Assembly (NCBI GenBank): GCA_013349435.1
Contig: DUZQ01000001.1
Coordinates: 25,877 to 89,876 of the forward strand
Length of the DNA stretch: 64,000 nt
Source: Planctomycetota bacterium
GTDB lineage: Bacteria; Planctomycetota; Phycisphaerae; Sedimentisphaerales; Anaerohalosphaeraceae
Direction of reading: 5' to 3'
The position numbers and the translations under genes were made by a program. Position 1 is the stretch's first letter. Every line of letters starts with the position of its first letter. A model generated the notes under the pieces. That model saw only the letters and a list, made by a program, of their open reading frames with translations, made no database searches and was not told where the DNA came from. Shown here piece by piece: positions 174 through 57,219 of this stretch.

Positions 174-207
174 GAAACTAAAAACTAAAAACTTAAAACT
201 AAAAACC
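174..207. repeat. A-rich heptad tract (AAAACTn units), same family as the arms flanking the four-helix-bundle gene at 55184-55613
   Basis: GAAACTAAAAACTAAAAACTTAAAACTAAAAACC read directly; compare AACTCAAAACTCAAAACTAAAAACTAAGAACT at 55582-55613. It lies about 13 nt upstream of the start codon of the minus-strand gene at 1-160. Confidence 0.7.
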
Positions 208-3396: not shown

Positions 3397-4653
3397 TTAT
3401 TTTGAGGATGGGGAGTCCTTTTTCCGAAGGTAAAGAACTTTAACAGAGTCTTTGCGGGGTGCATAATACATCTTCATATCCTCGGTATGCATGAACATCC
3501 ATGGGCTGGAGTAGCTTGTGCCGTTCTTCGTGAAGACGATGTCATCTGCAATGAACACGGCCGAGTGAAGTAGCCGGCCGGCGTCCAGGTACAAAAGTAT
3601 ATCGCCCAATCGCAGTTCATTTTTGTCGATCTTTCGGTAGGCTGATTCGATTCGCTGTTTGATTTTTGCTGATTTTCCGTAGTCATTGTTGATTTCGAGA
3701 TTGAAGAAGTTCAGGGAGGTCCAATGGCAGTCGCGTTCTACCGAGCTGTCGCCGAAGTCGTGGTCAAGGTCCGGATACATGTAAATGTGGCGGCGGACAA
3801 ACGGAGGCAGAAGATGAACGACGTCCAAAGAGCGGTCGCCGGGCCTGTTTCTGATGCTTTCCAGCAAAGGGTATATTTCTTTGGCTCTTGCCCCCCCTCC
3901 CCAGTACTGTGCGAGGGCGTGGGTATCGCTGTCGTCGGTAATCCTCAATTTAAGAAGTATGGTTTTTTCACAAGAAAGTGCCTGAAATACCTCTCGCCGC
4001 TCGGCATTTGTCGGGATATTTTTCATAAGTATAGGCATATCCGCAAAAAAAAGGATGTTGCCGTTGCGATAGACGAGTTTTTCGAGCAGGACGCGGGTGG
4101 ATTTGGAAAGGTTTACACCATACATCCATTCGTTCAGTGAAGGCGAGGCGTAGCGATGCACTTTATCATGGGCATAGTTGATTTTGTAGGTGGACAGGCG
4201 GTTATAAATGTAGGCGCGTGCTTCCGGACTCAGGTTGATGATGTCGGATTTAGAAGGTTCAATTATAACCCCAGCCGAACGGAGGTTGGGGCGGATTTTC
4301 TGGATGAGCGTTTGTCTTGTTTGTTCGGGCAATGGTGCGTTTGCGATGAATTGTTTCAAAGTCAGTTCGTCCCATTCGGGGAAGTGCCATTTTAGGCAAT
4401 CGGTGGCTATTTGCAATTCCGGCACATAATCTATAGGCGGAGCTATTCTGATGTAACTTATTTCAAGATTACCCCACGGGCCGGGTGCAGCTTTTCGGTC
4501 AAATACGAGTCGGGTATCCGAGGGAACTGTGGCCAGGCAAAACGGCTGGAGTATTGCAAAGTGCAAAAAAATAATTAACGAGATATATAAAAACAACCTT
4601 CCTGGGTATTCTTTAGGACAGGAGGAAGTCCCGGCAAATCGTCGATAAAGCAT
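3397..4653 (-). CDS. hypothetical membrane-anchored or secreted protein with a C-terminal papain/NlpC-P60-like Cys...His signature
   Basis: 418 aa with an N-terminal hydrophobic segment (LFLYISLIIFLHFAILQPFCLA). The C-terminal part has RDCHWTSLNFF ... LGDILLY ... LLHSAVFIADDIVFTKNG, which resembles a Cys/His thiol-peptidase core. Family assignment is from memory only. Confidence 0.55.
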   Translation of the reverse strand: MLYRRFAGTSSCPKEYPGRLFLYISLIIFLHFAILQPFCLATVPSDTRLVFDRKAAPGPWGNLEISYIRIAPPIDYVPELQIATDCLKWHFPEWDELTLKQFIANAPLPEQTRQTLIQKIRPNLRSAGVIIEPSKSDIINLSPEARAYIYNRLSTYKINYAHDKVHRYASPSLNEWMYGVNLSKSTRVLLEKLVYRNGNILFFADMPILMKNIPTNAERREVFQALSCEKTILLKLRITDDSDTHALAQYWGGGARAKEIYPLLESIRNRPGDRSLDVVHLLPPFVRRHIYMYPDLDHDFGDSSVERDCHWTSLNFFNLEINNDYGKSAKIKQRIESAYRKIDKNELRLGDILLYLDAGRLLHSAVFIADDIVFTKNGTSYSSPWMFMHTEDMKMYYAPRKDSVKVLYLRKKDSPSSK

Positions 4654-18449: not shown

Positions 18450-18514
18450 AATAAGTGCATAAGGGCATAAGTGCATAAGTAGGCGAATGTGACGGGATTG
18501 CTGAGGTGGTGGCT

Positions 18515-49298: not shown

Positions 49299-49405
49299 CC
49301 CCGGATTTGCTCAGCCCAAAGCCCGTGTAAAAGCCGGGCTGAGTATGCATCGAGCATCGAATTTCGAGTATCGAGTACCAGGCTTTGTGTCCTCCGTTTT
49401 GTGCC

Positions 49406-53641: not shown

Positions 53642-54007
53642 TTACGCCGGGTCGGTACTCTGGGTTGCCTGGAGCTTGTCGTCATAAATGTCAAAAACCC
53701 GGTCAAGGCGCGTAATCCTGAATATCTCGAAAATCTTCGGATTTATACCGCACAGCTTCAGTTGTCCGCCTGATTCATAAACCTTCTTGCTCACTCGAAT
53801 CAGAAGCCCCAGGACTGCACTTGTGAGGAACTTGACATTGCCAAAGTCAATCACAAGGTTAATCCCGTCGGCCTCTTCTACCAGCGGCATGAGCGAATCA
53901 GACAGGGCCTGGACCTCGCTTTCGTCTAAAATCCGCTCCTCTGTCAACGTTACAATCGTTGTATTTTTGCCGTATTCGACAGCTATTTTCGGCTGTACCT
54001 TATCCAT
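53642..54007 (-). CDS. STAS-domain anti-sigma factor antagonist
   Basis: 121 aa with VIDFGNVKFLTSAVLGLLI (phosphorylatable Ser/Thr region). Confidence 0.8.
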   Translation of the reverse strand: MDKVQPKIAVEYGKNTTIVTLTEERILDESEVQALSDSLMPLVEEADGINLVIDFGNVKFLTSAVLGLLIRVSKKVYESGGQLKLCGINPKIFEIFRITRLDRVFDIYDDKLQATQSTDPA

Positions 54008-54205
54008 AATATAATACTCCTGTAAGCCAATGAACGGCTGACATCATAAATGAAAGGCCTCGACCTGTCAAGCTTTTAGCTATGCGACGAAGGCTCCAAA
54101 AGCTATATTCGCCCTTTCAGCCGTTTATTTTCAGACTTGACCGGTCGCGTTCGTGGCGGTAGCATAGTGAAATAATGCTCATTTTGTACAAGGGGCTAAA
54201 GTGTT

Positions 54206-54613
54206 ATGGATTGTCCGGTATGTAAATCAGCAATGATTACCTGCCAGCTCGAAGAGGTGGAGGTCGATTACTGCCTCGACTGTGCGGGTATCTGGCTCGA
54301 CGCGGGTGAGCTTGAGGCGCTGCTTGACGATACGGCGCGGGCAAAAGAGTTGTTGGCTTCGTTTAAGCCGGCCAAAGAATGCACCGAAAAGCCTCGTAAG
54401 TGCCCTATATGTCTGAAAAAGATGGAAAAAATCCTCGTCGGCGCGGATGCCTCGGCCCAGCTTATTGACAGATGCAAGAAGGGCGACGGCCTGTGGTTTG
54501 ACAGGGGCGAATTGGGCGATGTCCTGAAAATAGGCTCGTTTGACGAACAGGGCAAAGTCCAAAAACTGTTAGCCGATATGTTCGGCGGTGAACCGAGTCA
54601 AATAAACGAGTAG
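54206..54613 (+). CDS. zinc-ribbon (zf-TFIIB type) domain protein, two repeats
   Basis: CPVCKSAM...DYCLDCAGIWLDAGELEALL and CPICLKKM...DRCKKGDGLWFDRGELGDVL. Confidence 0.7.
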   Translation: MDCPVCKSAMITCQLEEVEVDYCLDCAGIWLDAGELEALLDDTARAKELLASFKPAKECTEKPRKCPICLKKMEKILVGADASAQLIDRCKKGDGLWFDRGELGDVLKIGSFDEQGKVQKLLADMFGGEPSQINE

Positions 54614-54637
54614 GCAGAAATGTAAAGGAGAAACAGC

Positions 54638-55192
54638 ATGGTAGCACTTATTATTGTCGGTGTAATTTTAGTTTTGCTCATCATTTTCGTAATCGGGATA
54701 TACAACGCATTGGTTCGGCTGCGGAATCAGGTCGATAACGCCTGGTCACAGATTGACGTACAACTCAAAAGAAGGCACGACCTTATCCCGAATCTTGTCG
54801 AAACGGCCAAGGGATATATGGAGCACGAGCGTGGGACGTTCGAGGCCATCACCGAGGCAAGAAGTAAGGCGATGGGTGCCAAAACGGTTTCTGAAGCGTC
54901 CCAGGCAGAAGGCGGCCTGAGCGATGCTCTGAGTAAGTTCATGCTGGTTGTGGAAAACTACCCCGACTTAAAGGCCAACCAGAACTTTCTGTCACTGCAG
55001 GAAGAGCTTACCAGCACGGAAAATAAAATCGCCTTCGCCCGCCAGGGCTATAACGACCAGGTGCTTTTCTTCAATAACAAAATTCAGATGTTCCCCTCGA
55101 ACATCATCGCTAACTCGTTCAACTTCACTTCGAGAGACTTCTTTGAGATTGAAAGTGCCGAGGAACGTGAAGTACCTAAAGTTAGTTTTTAG
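54638..55192 (+). CDS. lemA: LemA family protein
   Basis: N-terminal TM segment and RRHDLIPNLVETAKGYMEHE, of typical LemA length. The last codons and the stop lie in the heptad arm. Confidence 0.9.
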   Translation: MVALIIVGVILVLLIIFVIGIYNALVRLRNQVDNAWSQIDVQLKRRHDLIPNLVETAKGYMEHERGTFEAITEARSKAMGAKTVSEASQAEGGLSDALSKFMLVVENYPDLKANQNFLSLQEELTSTENKIAFARQGYNDQVLFFNNKIQMFPSNIIANSFNFTSRDFFEIESAEEREVPKVSF

Positions 55193-55222
55193 TTTTTAGT
55201 TTTGAGTTTTAAGTTTTGAGTT
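55184..55222 (+). repeat. left heptad-repeat arm of the four-helix-bundle cassette
   Basis: AGTTTTTAGTTTTTAGTTTTGAGTTTTAAGTTTTGAGTT. It is complementary to 55582-55613. Confidence 0.9.
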
Positions 55223-55615
55223 ATGGCTGAAAGCCTCGTTAAGCAGAAAAGCTATGACTTTGCTCTGCGCATTATCAGGCTGTGCATGTGGCTAAAGGAA
55301 GAAAAGCATTTTGAAATAGCAACGCAGCTTCTAAGGGCAGGTACAAGTATAGGGGCCAATGTCGAAGAGGCTCTGGCGAGGCAGAGCAGAAAAGATTTTT
55401 TGGCCAAAATGTCCCTTGCTTCAAAGGAGGCAAGAGAGACGAATTACTGGTTGAGGTTGATACGAGACTCGGGAATTCTCAATGGAGACAGAATACAGGC
55501 AATAACAGACGAATCAGAAGAATTATGTAAGATTTTGACCAGCATGGTGAAGACCGGTAACGCAAAGATGAAAAGCGCATCAACTCAAAACTCAAAACTA
55601 AAAACTAAGAACTGA
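55223..55615 (+). CDS. four-helix-bundle protein (23S rRNA intervening-sequence protein / Avd family)
   Basis: 130 aa. SYDFALRIIRLCMWLKEEKHFEIATQLLRAGTSIGANVEEA...SKEARETNYWLRLI is the family signature. Confidence 0.85.
   Translation: MAESLVKQKSYDFALRIIRLCMWLKEEKHFEIATQLLRAGTSIGANVEEALARQSRKDFLAKMSLASKEARETNYWLRLIRDSGILNGDRIQAITDESEELCKILTSMVKTGNAKMKSASTQNSKLKTKN
55582..55613 (-). repeat. right heptad-repeat arm (inverted copy of the left arm)
   Basis: AACTCAAAACTCAAAACTAAAAACTAAGAACT; its reverse complement AGTTCTTAGTTTTTAGTTTTGAGTTTTGAGTT aligns with the left arm apart from one 7-nt unit. Confidence 0.9.
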
Positions 55616-55618
55616 AAG

Positions 55619-56866
55619 ATGTGGGAACAAATAAGAGCAAATAAGAGGAACTCAATTATCCTTCTGGTATTGATGGCTGTTTGCCTGATGGTGGTCGGTT
55701 ACGTCATCGGAATAGCATTTGCCGGGCCGGACGCCGGGTTCTTCGGCATAATAATCGCTACGGCCATCTGGCTGGTGCTGCTTGCGGTCAGCTTTGCGGG
55801 AGGCGACCAGATACTACTTGCCACCAGCAAGGCGGTGCCCGTTACTCATGACGTGCACCCCCAGCTATTCAACGTCGTTGAAGAGATGACCATCGCCGCA
55901 AATCTGCCCAAAATGCCCAAGGTATATATCATTAACGACCCGGCGCCGAACGCATTCGCAACCGGCAGAAAACCCGAAACGGCGTCGGTCGCGGTAACAG
56001 CGGGGCTTTTGGCAAGGCTGAATCGTGATGAGCTGCAGGGCGTTGTCGCACATGAAGTCAGCCATATCCTGCACCGCGATATACTTTTCGTTACCTTGGC
56101 GGGCATAATGCTGGGCAGCATTGTACTGATTAGCCAGGTTTTTCTGCGGGGAATGTTCTACAGCTCAATGATGGGTTCGCGCCGCAGATACTCAGGAGGT
56201 TCGTCCGGCGGCGGCCAGGCACAGGCACTGTTTATGCTTATTGCGATAATCGCGGCAATCCTGGCGCCTATCTTTGCATACCTTTTATATTTTGCACTTT
56301 CAAGGAGGCGCGAATACCTCGCCGATGCAGGCGGCGTCCGGCTTACACGCTATCCTGAAGGACTTGCATCTGCACTTGAAAAAATCGCCAACGACCCGGC
56401 CCCGCAACTGGCCTCGGCCAATAAAGTAACCGCTCCGATGTACATCGCAAACCCTCTTAAAGGTAAAAAGCAACGGAAGCTTTCCGACCTTACCAGCACC
56501 CACCCGCCCATTTCCGAGAGGGTCAGGATTTTACGCAATATGTCCCGCGGCGCTTCGTTTAAGGATTATTCCGACTCCTACAGCCAGACGGTCGGTGCCG
56601 GGTCGGTCATGCCGGCTTCGGCCCTGAAAGAATCTGAAAGTGTCGAAATCAGACACCCCGGCGAAAAACCAAAAAAGTCGATAAGCGCACAAAAGCAAAT
56701 GAGGCAGGTCGGCGACATCATGCGCAGGGTCAACCAGTTCACATTTTTGACCTGCGCATGCGGATTGCAAATGAAAATCCCGCCGAACTACAAACCAAAA
56801 AACGTCTCCTGCCCCCGCTGCAAAAGAAACCTGGAACTGCCCAAAGCCGGCGGAAAACCTCTATAG
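55619..56866 (+). CDS. htpX: M48-family HtpX-like zinc metalloprotease with a C-terminal zinc ribbon
   Basis: HEVSHILHRD (HExxH), multiple TM segments, THPPISERV, and a C-terminal CACG...CPRC. Confidence 0.85.
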   Translation: MWEQIRANKRNSIILLVLMAVCLMVVGYVIGIAFAGPDAGFFGIIIATAIWLVLLAVSFAGGDQILLATSKAVPVTHDVHPQLFNVVEEMTIAANLPKMPKVYIINDPAPNAFATGRKPETASVAVTAGLLARLNRDELQGVVAHEVSHILHRDILFVTLAGIMLGSIVLISQVFLRGMFYSSMMGSRRRYSGGSSGGGQAQALFMLIAIIAAILAPIFAYLLYFALSRRREYLADAGGVRLTRYPEGLASALEKIANDPAPQLASANKVTAPMYIANPLKGKKQRKLSDLTSTHPPISERVRILRNMSRGASFKDYSDSYSQTVGAGSVMPASALKESESVEIRHPGEKPKKSISAQKQMRQVGDIMRRVNQFTFLTCACGLQMKIPPNYKPKNVSCPRCKRNLELPKAGGKPL

Positions 56867-56879
56867 ATGTTATCTGCGA

Positions 56880-57090
56880 CAATTGTCATTTCAGCCCCGC
56901 ATCGTGGTGCGGGGTAAACTCCGTGCGGGATAAACTCAACTGGAATCCACGTCTTTCAGCTGGCAAATGGATTCCAAATCAAGCCTGCCCTGAGCAAAGC
57001 CGAATGGGTTTGGAATGACAATTCCGACGTGTCTTCCACAATGTCATTCTGAACGTAGCGCCGGCGGAGTGAAGAATCTCGGCCCTTACA
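56880..57090. repeat. mosaic intergenic repeat cluster
   Basis: Hairpin element copy 3 (56885-56948), GGATTCCAAATCAAGCC...GGAATGACA, and GTCATTCTGAACGTAGCGCCGGCGGAGTGAAGAATCTC (57043-57080). Confidence 0.85.
56885..56948 (+). repeat. ~70-nt hairpin repeat, copy 3
   Basis: GTCATTTCAGCCCCGCATCGTGGTGCGGGGTAAACTCCGTGCGGGATAAACTCAACTGGAATCC. Confidence 0.9.
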
Positions 57091-57219
57091 AATCGTTACT
57101 GAGGTTACGCCAGGCCAAAATGATTGACAGAGTGGAACCGGCCTTTTATTATAGCTGAGTTGTTTCTGACAACTTGAGTTGTAAAAAAATTTATTTACCG
57201 CCAATCAAGGAGGTTTCAA

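Follow-up and report, generated by a model that had tools for sequence, protein, structure and literature searches.

A PF05635 gene between inverted heptad arms at the lemA-htpX junction of a planctomycete, and related cassettes at operon junctions in other phyla

What is a gene of the PF05635 family doing between lemA and htpX, and why is it framed there by two tracts of tandem 7-nt repeats that are the reverse complement of each other? The family has solved structures and is known mainly from intervening sequences (IVSs) of ribosomal RNA (rRNA) and from its fold kinship with the Avd proteins of diversity-generating retroelements (DGRs). The locus lies in 64,000 nt of a Planctomycetota bacterium (assembly GCA_013349435.1, contig DUZQ01000001.1, positions 25,877 to 89,876 of the forward strand), a stretch that we call the window and number from its first letter. 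An earlier reading of these letters, the original prediction, had proposed an insertion cassette and not a fixed operon member. That proposal is borne out here: the arms move with the gene to other junctions, and both empty and decayed sites exist. We show that gene and arms are one unit, present at different operon junctions in different lineages and absent or decayed at the same junction in relatives. The architecture is widespread across phyla; neither this breadth nor two of its features, the five cores of each arm and the stop codons of the left arm, had been part of the original prediction.

In the window the entire lemA-htpX gap is taken up by a 130-codon gene (55223..55615, + strand) of the PF05635/TIGR02436 four-helix-bundle family, the only PF05635 gene in the 64 kb. 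Upstream of it lies the left arm (55182..55222, + strand), a T-rich tract of AGTTTTN heptads found by Tandem Repeats Finder (period 7, 5.9 copies) and again among inverted-repeat pairs; the AGTT core recurs in it six times, at 7-nt intervals (at 55184, 55191, 55198, 55205, 55212 and 55219). The codons GTT AGT TTT and the stop codon TAG (55190-55192) that end lemA (54638..55192, + strand) lie inside the first heptad of this arm, and the ATG of the cassette gene, at 55223, follows the arm with 0 nt between them. The right arm (55582..55617, + strand) is A-rich, is made of AACTNAA heptads with five AACT cores (at 55582, 55589, 55596, 55603 and 55610), and is the reverse complement of the left. 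The stop codon of the cassette gene, TGA at 55613-55615, overlaps the last of these cores; the ATG of htpX (55619..56866, + strand) comes 3 nt (AAG) later, and the right arm itself stops 1 nt short of it. A heptad tract and its imperfect reverse complement bracketing a 130-codon ORF had been described in the original prediction, and everything said there of the sequence holds, position by position.

The two arms are predicted to pair with each other. The inverted repeat joins 55184-55215 with 55582-55613 (32 nt, 94% complementary), or alternatively 55187-55222 with 55582-55617 (36 nt, 89% complementary). When 55150-55650 was folded with RNAfold, the arms were paired in both the minimum free energy (MFE) and the centroid structures, with z = -4.46; the predicted arm duplex amounts to -38.4 kcal/mol, and keeping the left arm single-stranded costs 33 kcal/mol. 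The original prediction had expected pairing over at least 25 nt and had regarded the lack of a stable long stem as fatal to its proposal; a long and stable stem of 32 bp is what the folding predicts. It had also allowed that the heptads might be common low-complexity sequence. This does not hold for the AGTTTTN family, whose heptad pattern is confined to three places in the window, with 10 overlapping matches in all; shuffled sequences lead one to expect 0.04. The suspicion is sound in so far as unrelated short-period tracts do occur at other junctions of the window.

The product of the cassette gene is a secure member of its family. It matches PF05635 with E=5.6e-27 (94.5 bits, cut-off 33.8) and TIGR02436 with E=1e-31 (109.4 bits, cut-off 24), and it falls below the cut-offs of NF008911 and NF008912, the only other NCBIfam subfamily models that it matched, both labelled simply as hypothetical proteins. 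The family is large, with 10,147 cluster representatives at 50% identity matching at E<=1e-3, and a protein identical to the cassette product is annotated from a Planctomycetes metagenome-assembled genome. By sequence the protein matches PDB entry 2RLD (E=5.9e-26). Its AlphaFold model (pLDDT 85) is a four-helix bundle, with helices over residues 2-111 and a tail with values <50; residues 117-130, the last 14, are encoded by the right arm and predicted to be disordered, and the same arm-encoded tail, TKNSKL(K/R)T(K/Q)N, is seen again in many homologues. Foldseek matched the model to 2RLD (E=2.5e-7, target-normalised TM-score 0.90), to 2GSC (E=2.9e-3) and, with weak E values of 0.3-0.8, to the Avd folds 4DWL and 8UB7 (target-normalised TM-score about 0.7, 0.72-0.74). 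The family consensus GxxRxxxSxxxNxxE (Zhang et al. 2013, PMC3936711) is represented by R38, S42, N46 and E49, which are invariant or nearly so in the homologue alignment; its leading G is missing, residue 35 being Q. PADLOC and PHROGs scans of the protein gave no match. The 2RLD and 2GSC entries contain five chains each, the family is described in the literature as a homopentameric toroid, and Avd is described as a positively charged pentamer like the S23 proteins that binds structured RNA in the DGR ribonucleoprotein. By analogy, the cassette protein would form a homopentameric ring.

Comparison of the cassette gene with its orthologues gave dN/dS values of 0.04-0.10 and dS values of 0.5-1.0, the latter as for lemA and htpX. 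The low dN/dS and the flank-like dS indicate that the protein is functional and has long been inherited together with its flanks. The gene is thus under strong purifying selection and is inherited vertically over moderate evolutionary distances.

Orthologues that are 85-91% identical occupy the same site between lemA and htpX, arms included, but their left arms differ in AGTT cores: the window has six, L001 five and L004 three. An ORF without arms at this site, which the original prediction had considered the mark of an ordinary conserved operon member, was not found outright; the relatives that carry the ORF there have arms as well. We then scanned metagenome contigs for relatives of htpX at 70-77% identity, which yielded 80 loci. 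lemA is almost always directly upstream of htpX in these, with spacers of 1-418 nt. The empty site that the original prediction had suggested looking for was found twice, in L124 (gap of 1 nt) and L105 (gap of 15 nt). One locus (L138) has a complete cassette; another (L164) has the gene and the right arm without a left arm, the gene's ATG overlapping the lemA stop codon; a third (L095) has a pseudogene of the cassette gene with a right arm. About a dozen loci, L099, L106, L112, L145, L158 and L161 among them, retain only arm stubs or an arm-loop-arm hairpin, and the remaining spacers of the survey contain unrelated repeats. No target-site duplication was seen when filled and empty junctions were compared.

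In this clade the junction is also a hot spot for other small repeats. Many of the spacers in this survey (L087-L166) contain one to four hairpins of the form 'GGCACCCTCAAAC...GTTTGGGGGTG' (for example L097, L089, L110 and L111). Downstream of htpX in L164, at 3937-4372, there are TCTGTCC heptad arrays in four blocks of up to 129 nt, unrelated in sequence to the cassette arms.

The same unit is found at other junctions. Between nifU and a PF01053 (Cys/Met metabolism) gene there is a gene that is 73% identical to that of the window and has the same arms on its flanks, an arrangement that recurs in many Planctomycetota. A neighbour-joining tree of the protein core, which is short and carries no resampling support, does not track the insertion site: the copies in L011 and L164 (lemA site) are 82-88% identical to nifU-site copies and only 71-74% identical to the clade of the window. 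This discordance between protein tree and insertion site indicates re-insertion or exchange between copies. As an aside, htpX (55619) and nifU, both of which recur as downstream genes in Planctomycetota, start with ATGTGGGA (MWE or MWD; L006-L016), which could be a coincidence or could reflect a preferred insertion context.

To see how general the architecture is, we surveyed 80 loci of species-representative genomes carrying relatives 48-76% identical to the cassette protein, 70 of them with both flanks. They come from at least eight phyla, including Planctomycetota, Verrucomicrobiota, Acidobacteriota, Nitrospirota, Desulfobacterota, Bacteroidota, Chloroflexota and Elusimicrobia. Carriers available in culture include Pontibacter cellulosilyticus SD6, Polaribacter marinus MSW13, Marivirga sericea DSM 4125, Hymenobacter rubripertinctus CCM 8852, Desulfosarcina alkanivorans PL12 and Anabaena cylindrica PCC 7122. 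The upstream and downstream flanks give an inverted-repeat score of >=12 in 77% of the 70 loci, compared with 4% of neighbouring genes and 0.9% of shuffles. When all right arms were ranked as partners of a given left arm, the arm from the same locus had a median rank of 8.5 of 70, where chance would give 34.5. In predicted MFE structures the median pairing between the two ends of a cassette is 28.5 bp, and between those of control segments it is 8. Both neighbours are co-oriented with the cassette in 39/53 loci; the upstream gap has a median of 49 nt and the downstream gap one of 11 nt. The association also appears from the side of the repeats: in an unbiased sample of 451 kb, 3/10 stringent period-7 tracts lie <=120 nt from one of only four family genes, which with their margins make up about 0.6% of the sample, an enrichment that we estimate at about 50-fold.

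Heptad tracts (GTAAAAA, ACTGGTC and TAGTGAT) also flank more distant members of the family, which are carried on plasmids from cultured Nostocales, Euhalothece and Bernardetia. The five-core rule described below fails on two of these plasmids: the Euhalothece plasmid (L180) has (ACTGGTC)x13 downstream of the gene, and the Bernardetia plasmid (L179) has (TAGTGAT)x8 upstream. We take these long arrays to resemble the short tandemly repeated (STRR) heptamers of cyanobacteria.

The arms share a design rather than a sequence. Their tandem period is always 7 at the survey loci, and the heptads vary by locus (AGTTTTG, AATTTTG, AATTACG, AGAGTTA, AGTAATT and others); an A[GA]TT core is common, the 4-nt core being conserved and the 3-nt spacer variable. 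In AATT-type cassettes the core is identical on both arms, whereas AGTT-type cassettes present different cores on one RNA strand (AGUU and AACU). The number of cores per arm has a sharp peak at exactly five, a count shown by 36/70 arms on the left and 33/70 on the right; fours and sixes are few, and the peak holds in at least 12 unrelated gene contexts from several phyla, though the counts are not phylogenetically independent. Stop codons are the second regularity. In the window each left-arm heptad holds TAG, TGA or TAA. Position 7 of the left-arm heptads is T in 59, G in 87, A in 26 and C in only 2 cases, a composition by which nearly every left-arm heptad makes a stop codon; and because 7 is not a multiple of 3, the stops of successive heptads fall in successive frames. 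At the survey loci the stop codon of the upstream gene is usually supplied by the arm, and that of the cassette gene lies in or at the right arm.

These features suggest how such an insertion might be tolerated. The element would be a promoterless cassette of about 436 nt (55182-55617), a PF05635 gene between inverted arms of about five 7-nt repeats, each an A[GA]TT core plus three variable bases, inserted in the direction of transcription exactly at the lemA-htpX junction. The arms would render the insertion harmless, allowing a promoterless gene to sit in an operon without breaking it. With stops in successive frames, the left arm would end the upstream ORF inside the arm, right before the ATG of the cassette gene, whose own ORF would end in the right arm, right before the ATG of htpX. 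Where the transcript is untranslated, the arms would form a stem of about 32 bp with the ORF in its loop, and the stop codon of lemA and the start codon of htpX would again lie only a few nucleotides apart, as at the empty sites. The stem would be a likely substrate of RNase III, by analogy with the 428-nt IVS of Coxiella 23S rRNA (PMC4990558), and its cleavage might split or regulate the lemA-htpX transcript. A scan of the + strand from the zinc-ribbon gene upstream of lemA through the end of htpX found no promoter-like or terminator-like site; the idea of a self-contained transcription unit is unsupported by this result and was dropped. No Rfam model matched 54000-57200 at E<=1.

We hold this reading, in which the arms provide frame-independent termination and form a proximity-restoring stem that is cut by RNase III, as an even call, because two tests of pairing were neutral. 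Between-arm mismatches on the sense strand include 46 of the G:U type and 40 of the A:C type, which is no excess of G:U. Spacer complementarity in the 19 loci with five cores on each arm was 75.4% in the correct register and 77.6% in shifted registers (p=0.52), and we no longer use base-pair covariation as an argument for RNA pairing. The register result implies that the arms are complementary as members of one heptad family and not base pair by base pair, and a role in DNA or in protein binding would explain this equally well. Other observations weigh against the reading too. If the stem simply had to be stable, a sharp mode at five cores would not be expected. The gene of L164 has a right arm and no left arm, and right-arm stubs without a gene occur upstream of htpX, so that the right arm may have a role that does not require pairing. 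In two plasmids (L178 and L177) the family gene lies antisense between cas2 and cas1. Recent transposition, tested with one identical protein present on 20 contigs, was not seen; the neighbours were always the same. The neutral pairing tests, the five-core mode and the lone right arms keep alive the alternatives in which the arms are bound by protein or act as DNA repeats.

A rival explanation makes the arms binding sites for the cassette's own pentamer, each subunit taking one A[GA]TT core and each arm offering five. The protein would act on the RNA beside the two start codons, or on DNA, and would autoregulate its own gene and the neighbours or else maintain and spread the cassette; complementarity of the arms would be secondary, the same site being shown twice in opposite orientation. 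Such a scheme fits the 7-nt spacing of the five cores on both arms across unrelated contexts, the five chains of the solved structures, the toroid described for the family and the RNA binding of the related Avd pentamer. It would also suit a conserved core with a variable spacer, complementarity that is not register-specific, and the identical cores on both arms of AATT-type cassettes. The heptads, however, differ so widely (AGTTTTG, AATTACG, AGAGTTA, AGTAATT) that specificity would have to co-evolve with them, the two AGTT-type arms do not show the same core on one RNA strand, the more distant relatives in cyanobacteria and Bacteroidota carry 3 to 13 heptads instead of five, and the core counts are phylogenetically non-independent. 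We regard pentamer binding as a tentative possibility, held well short of even confidence. Less is to be said for the arms as terminal inverted repeats of a non-autonomous DNA element, similar to a miniature inverted-repeat transposable element (MITE) with a passenger gene, moved or exchanged as DNA, either by an enzyme whose gene lies elsewhere or through recombination among the arms of separate copies. The polymorphic presence of the unit, the arm-only hairpin remnants and the pseudogene at one junction are what such an element would leave behind; so are the occurrence of gene plus arms at several junctions and the failure of the proteins of L011 and L164 to cluster by site, and the neutral G:U and register tests fit a repeat at the DNA level. 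Yet filled and empty sites differ by no target-site duplication, no transposase or integrase is nearby, arm copy number varies, and near-identical copies in different contexts were not seen. Strong co-orientation and nucleotide-exact placement at stop and start codons would be unusual for a transposon, and the gene has been under long-term purifying selection. We consider this explanation quite unlikely.

That the gene is simply a functionally linked member of a lemA-htpX operon, its tracts being incidental low-complexity sequence or generic A/U-rich leaders, is highly improbable. The gene is conserved at the site with dN/dS and dS values like those of its neighbours, gene starts elsewhere in the window have short-period tracts near them (1511-1542, 18451-18480, 49349-49377), and only three of the ten stringent period-7 tracts in the 451-kb sample adjoin a family gene. 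Against this, most relatives have lemA next to htpX and no such gene between the two, gene plus arms occur in unrelated operons of many phyla, complementarity of the flanks is far commoner than at neighbouring genes, and heptad tracts are enriched beside family genes by the estimate given above. The empty sites and the multiple contexts largely refute the ordinary-operon explanation, and we treat it as effectively excluded.

The closest known system is the IVS of 23S rRNA. In Coxiella burnetii a 428-nt IVS has complementary borders that form a stem, RNase III cuts midway along the stem, and an S23p ORF lies in the loop (PMC4990558); IVSs with S23p are reported for Leptospira and others too. 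The cassette likewise places a gene of the same family in the loop of a stem formed by complementary borders, is of similar size (about 436 nt), and shares the sense orientation relative to the host transcript and the sporadic occurrence among relatives at a conserved site (PMC4990558). It differs in its host site, which is a junction of protein-coding genes and not an rRNA helix, in having arms of tandem heptads with five cores each, and in an ORF under purifying selection, whereas the Coxiella ORF is reported to be decaying and is probably untranslated (PMC4990558). As it does not lie in an rRNA gene, the cassette would work like an rRNA IVS without being one. With the Avd proteins of DGRs it shares a four-helix-bundle subunit, 4DWL and 8UB7 being recovered by the fold search, but the similarity is at the fold level only (Foldseek E about 0.3). 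No reverse transcriptase or template/variable repeat was found near the cassette gene or in the 3-kb flanks of L001-L006, and the cassette is accordingly not a DGR component.

A second resemblance concerns the arms. Beggiatoaceae, Cyanobacteria and Bacteroidetes carry tandem TAACTGA heptamers upstream of start codons (MacGregor 2015, PMC4679880). Like the arms, they are tandem 7-nt units, in 2-6 copies, that end a few nucleotides before a start codon, provide stops in all frames and hold an AACT core (PMC4679880). Distances from tract to ATG in the window are 0 nt for the left arm, 1 nt for the right arm and 13 nt for a solo tract described below. The STRR heptamers of heterocystous cyanobacteria are a related case. 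The TAACTGA heptamers are described as direct repeats without an inverted partner, whereas the AGTTTTN and AACTNAA tracts of the cassette form an inverted pair, and the report names no associated gene family and makes no mention of 23S, S23, intervening sequence or four helix (PMC4679880).

Genes called '23S_rRNA_IVP' have been noted inside cas operons (Zhang et al. 2013, PMC3936711) and are listed as CRISPR-linked (PMC10910872). Their position recalls that of the cassette: in Pleurocapsa the gene is wedged between cmr3 and cmr2 with gaps of 85 nt and 5 nt, as calculated from the published coordinates, and in Nostocales plasmids the same family lies, flanked by heptads, between cas2 and cas1. 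Those papers, by contrast, read the position as a functional link with CRISPR-Cas, and flanking repeats or insertion do not figure in them (PMC3936711, PMC10910872). In L178, plasmid pANACY.01 of Anabaena cylindrica PCC 7122 (locus 1790-2575), four GTAAAAA/TTTTTAC tracts are laid out in the order A-rich, T-rich, gene, A-rich, T-rich; L177, a plasmid of Nostoc sp. TCL26-01, retains only part of such a set. This layout may allow alternative pairings and may explain the reported CRISPR association of the family. With MITEs and integron cassettes, finally, the element has in common that it is small, promoterless, bounded by inverted repeats or associated with a hairpin, expressed from the host promoter and represented by ORF-less hairpin derivatives. 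It differs in lacking a target-site duplication, a single site of the attC type, an integrase or transposase and a multicopy family of identical members, and its ends are tandem heptads of variable copy number. Readings as an integron cassette or a toxin-antitoxin system were dropped, no defining component of either being nearby.

We found no prior account of arm-flanked PF05635 genes outside rRNA in the literature, where our coverage of subscription journals was incomplete and earlier notice is possible. Members of the family form a recognisable unit of five heptads, gene and five inverted heptads, placed with nucleotide exactness at operon junctions in many phyla, and the unit offers the family a concrete candidate partner among nucleic acids. 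It likewise offers an origin for some of the unexplained tandem heptamer tracts near start codons, and the reported associations of the family with cas operons may reflect insertion of the cassette and not function. Annotators should be cautious of low-complexity C-terminal tails such as ...TKNSKLKTKN, which are translated arm sequence. On a wider proposal, PF05635 pentamers would be the protein partners of bacterial tandem heptamers, a ring seated on a five-heptad arm, and would make up a self-recognising (ribo)nucleoprotein cassette that regulates adjacent start codons and may spread via transcripts. We think this rather unlikely; if true, it would explain the sense orientation of the family in rRNA and at operon junctions, and it would tie together the rRNA intervening sequences, the TAACTGA and STRR heptamers and the apparent CRISPR association.

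The genes called around the cassette encode a zinc-ribbon protein, LemA, an M48 protease, a phosphoglycerate-mutase-like protein and MutL. A double zinc-ribbon gene (54206..54613, + strand; PF13453, E=1.3e-22) is the first gene of the apparent operon and stands in the same place upstream of lemA in the relatives L001-L004. LemA matches PF04011 (E=6.7e-64), the profile being matched to the last residue, 184. The product of htpX is an M48 zinc metalloprotease (PF01435, E=8.5e-33) that matches the NCBIfam HtpX models with a best E=2.5e-94, yet falls below their equivalog cut-offs. An extra C-terminal segment of HtpX (56700-56866) has CxC and CPxC motifs and resembles a zinc ribbon.

Another tract of the AGTTTTN family stands alone at 174..207 on the minus strand, the strand on which it is T-rich, 13 nt upstream of an ATG at 160-158. 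The original prediction had pointed to a solo arm in front of a gene start here, and the tract is real. It has no inverted partner within 1.7 kb; the minus-strand gene behind it runs off the window, and a search with its visible N-terminus of 53 aa found no homologue. The tract could be an arm left over from a decayed cassette, or else a leader repeat that is independent of one; lone arms of this sort are common at the lemA-htpX junctions of relatives. The long intergenic region beside it, at 380-830, is rich in repeats. A 50-nt direct repeat occupies 463-512 and 722-771 (96% identical), a 32-nt repeat has its copies at 385-416 and 547-578, and a pair of 28-nt units stands in tandem at 413-468. 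At about 637-690 there is also a hairpin-like 'gtcattctgagccc...gcgaagaatctc' element, and similar 'GTCATTCCCGC...GGGAATCC' elements fill the lemA-htpX spacers of L157, L111, L094 and L140.

Short tandem tracts with a period not divisible by 3 are found at further gene junctions of the window: GAAAAAT in 4.7 copies (1511-1542), ATAAGTGC in 3.8 copies (18451-18480) and ATCGAGT in 4.1 copies (49349-49377). The octamer tract among them, each unit of which contains TAA, begins right after a stop codon and precedes the next start codon. This genome may have a general habit of placing such repeats at junctions, independent of the cassette.

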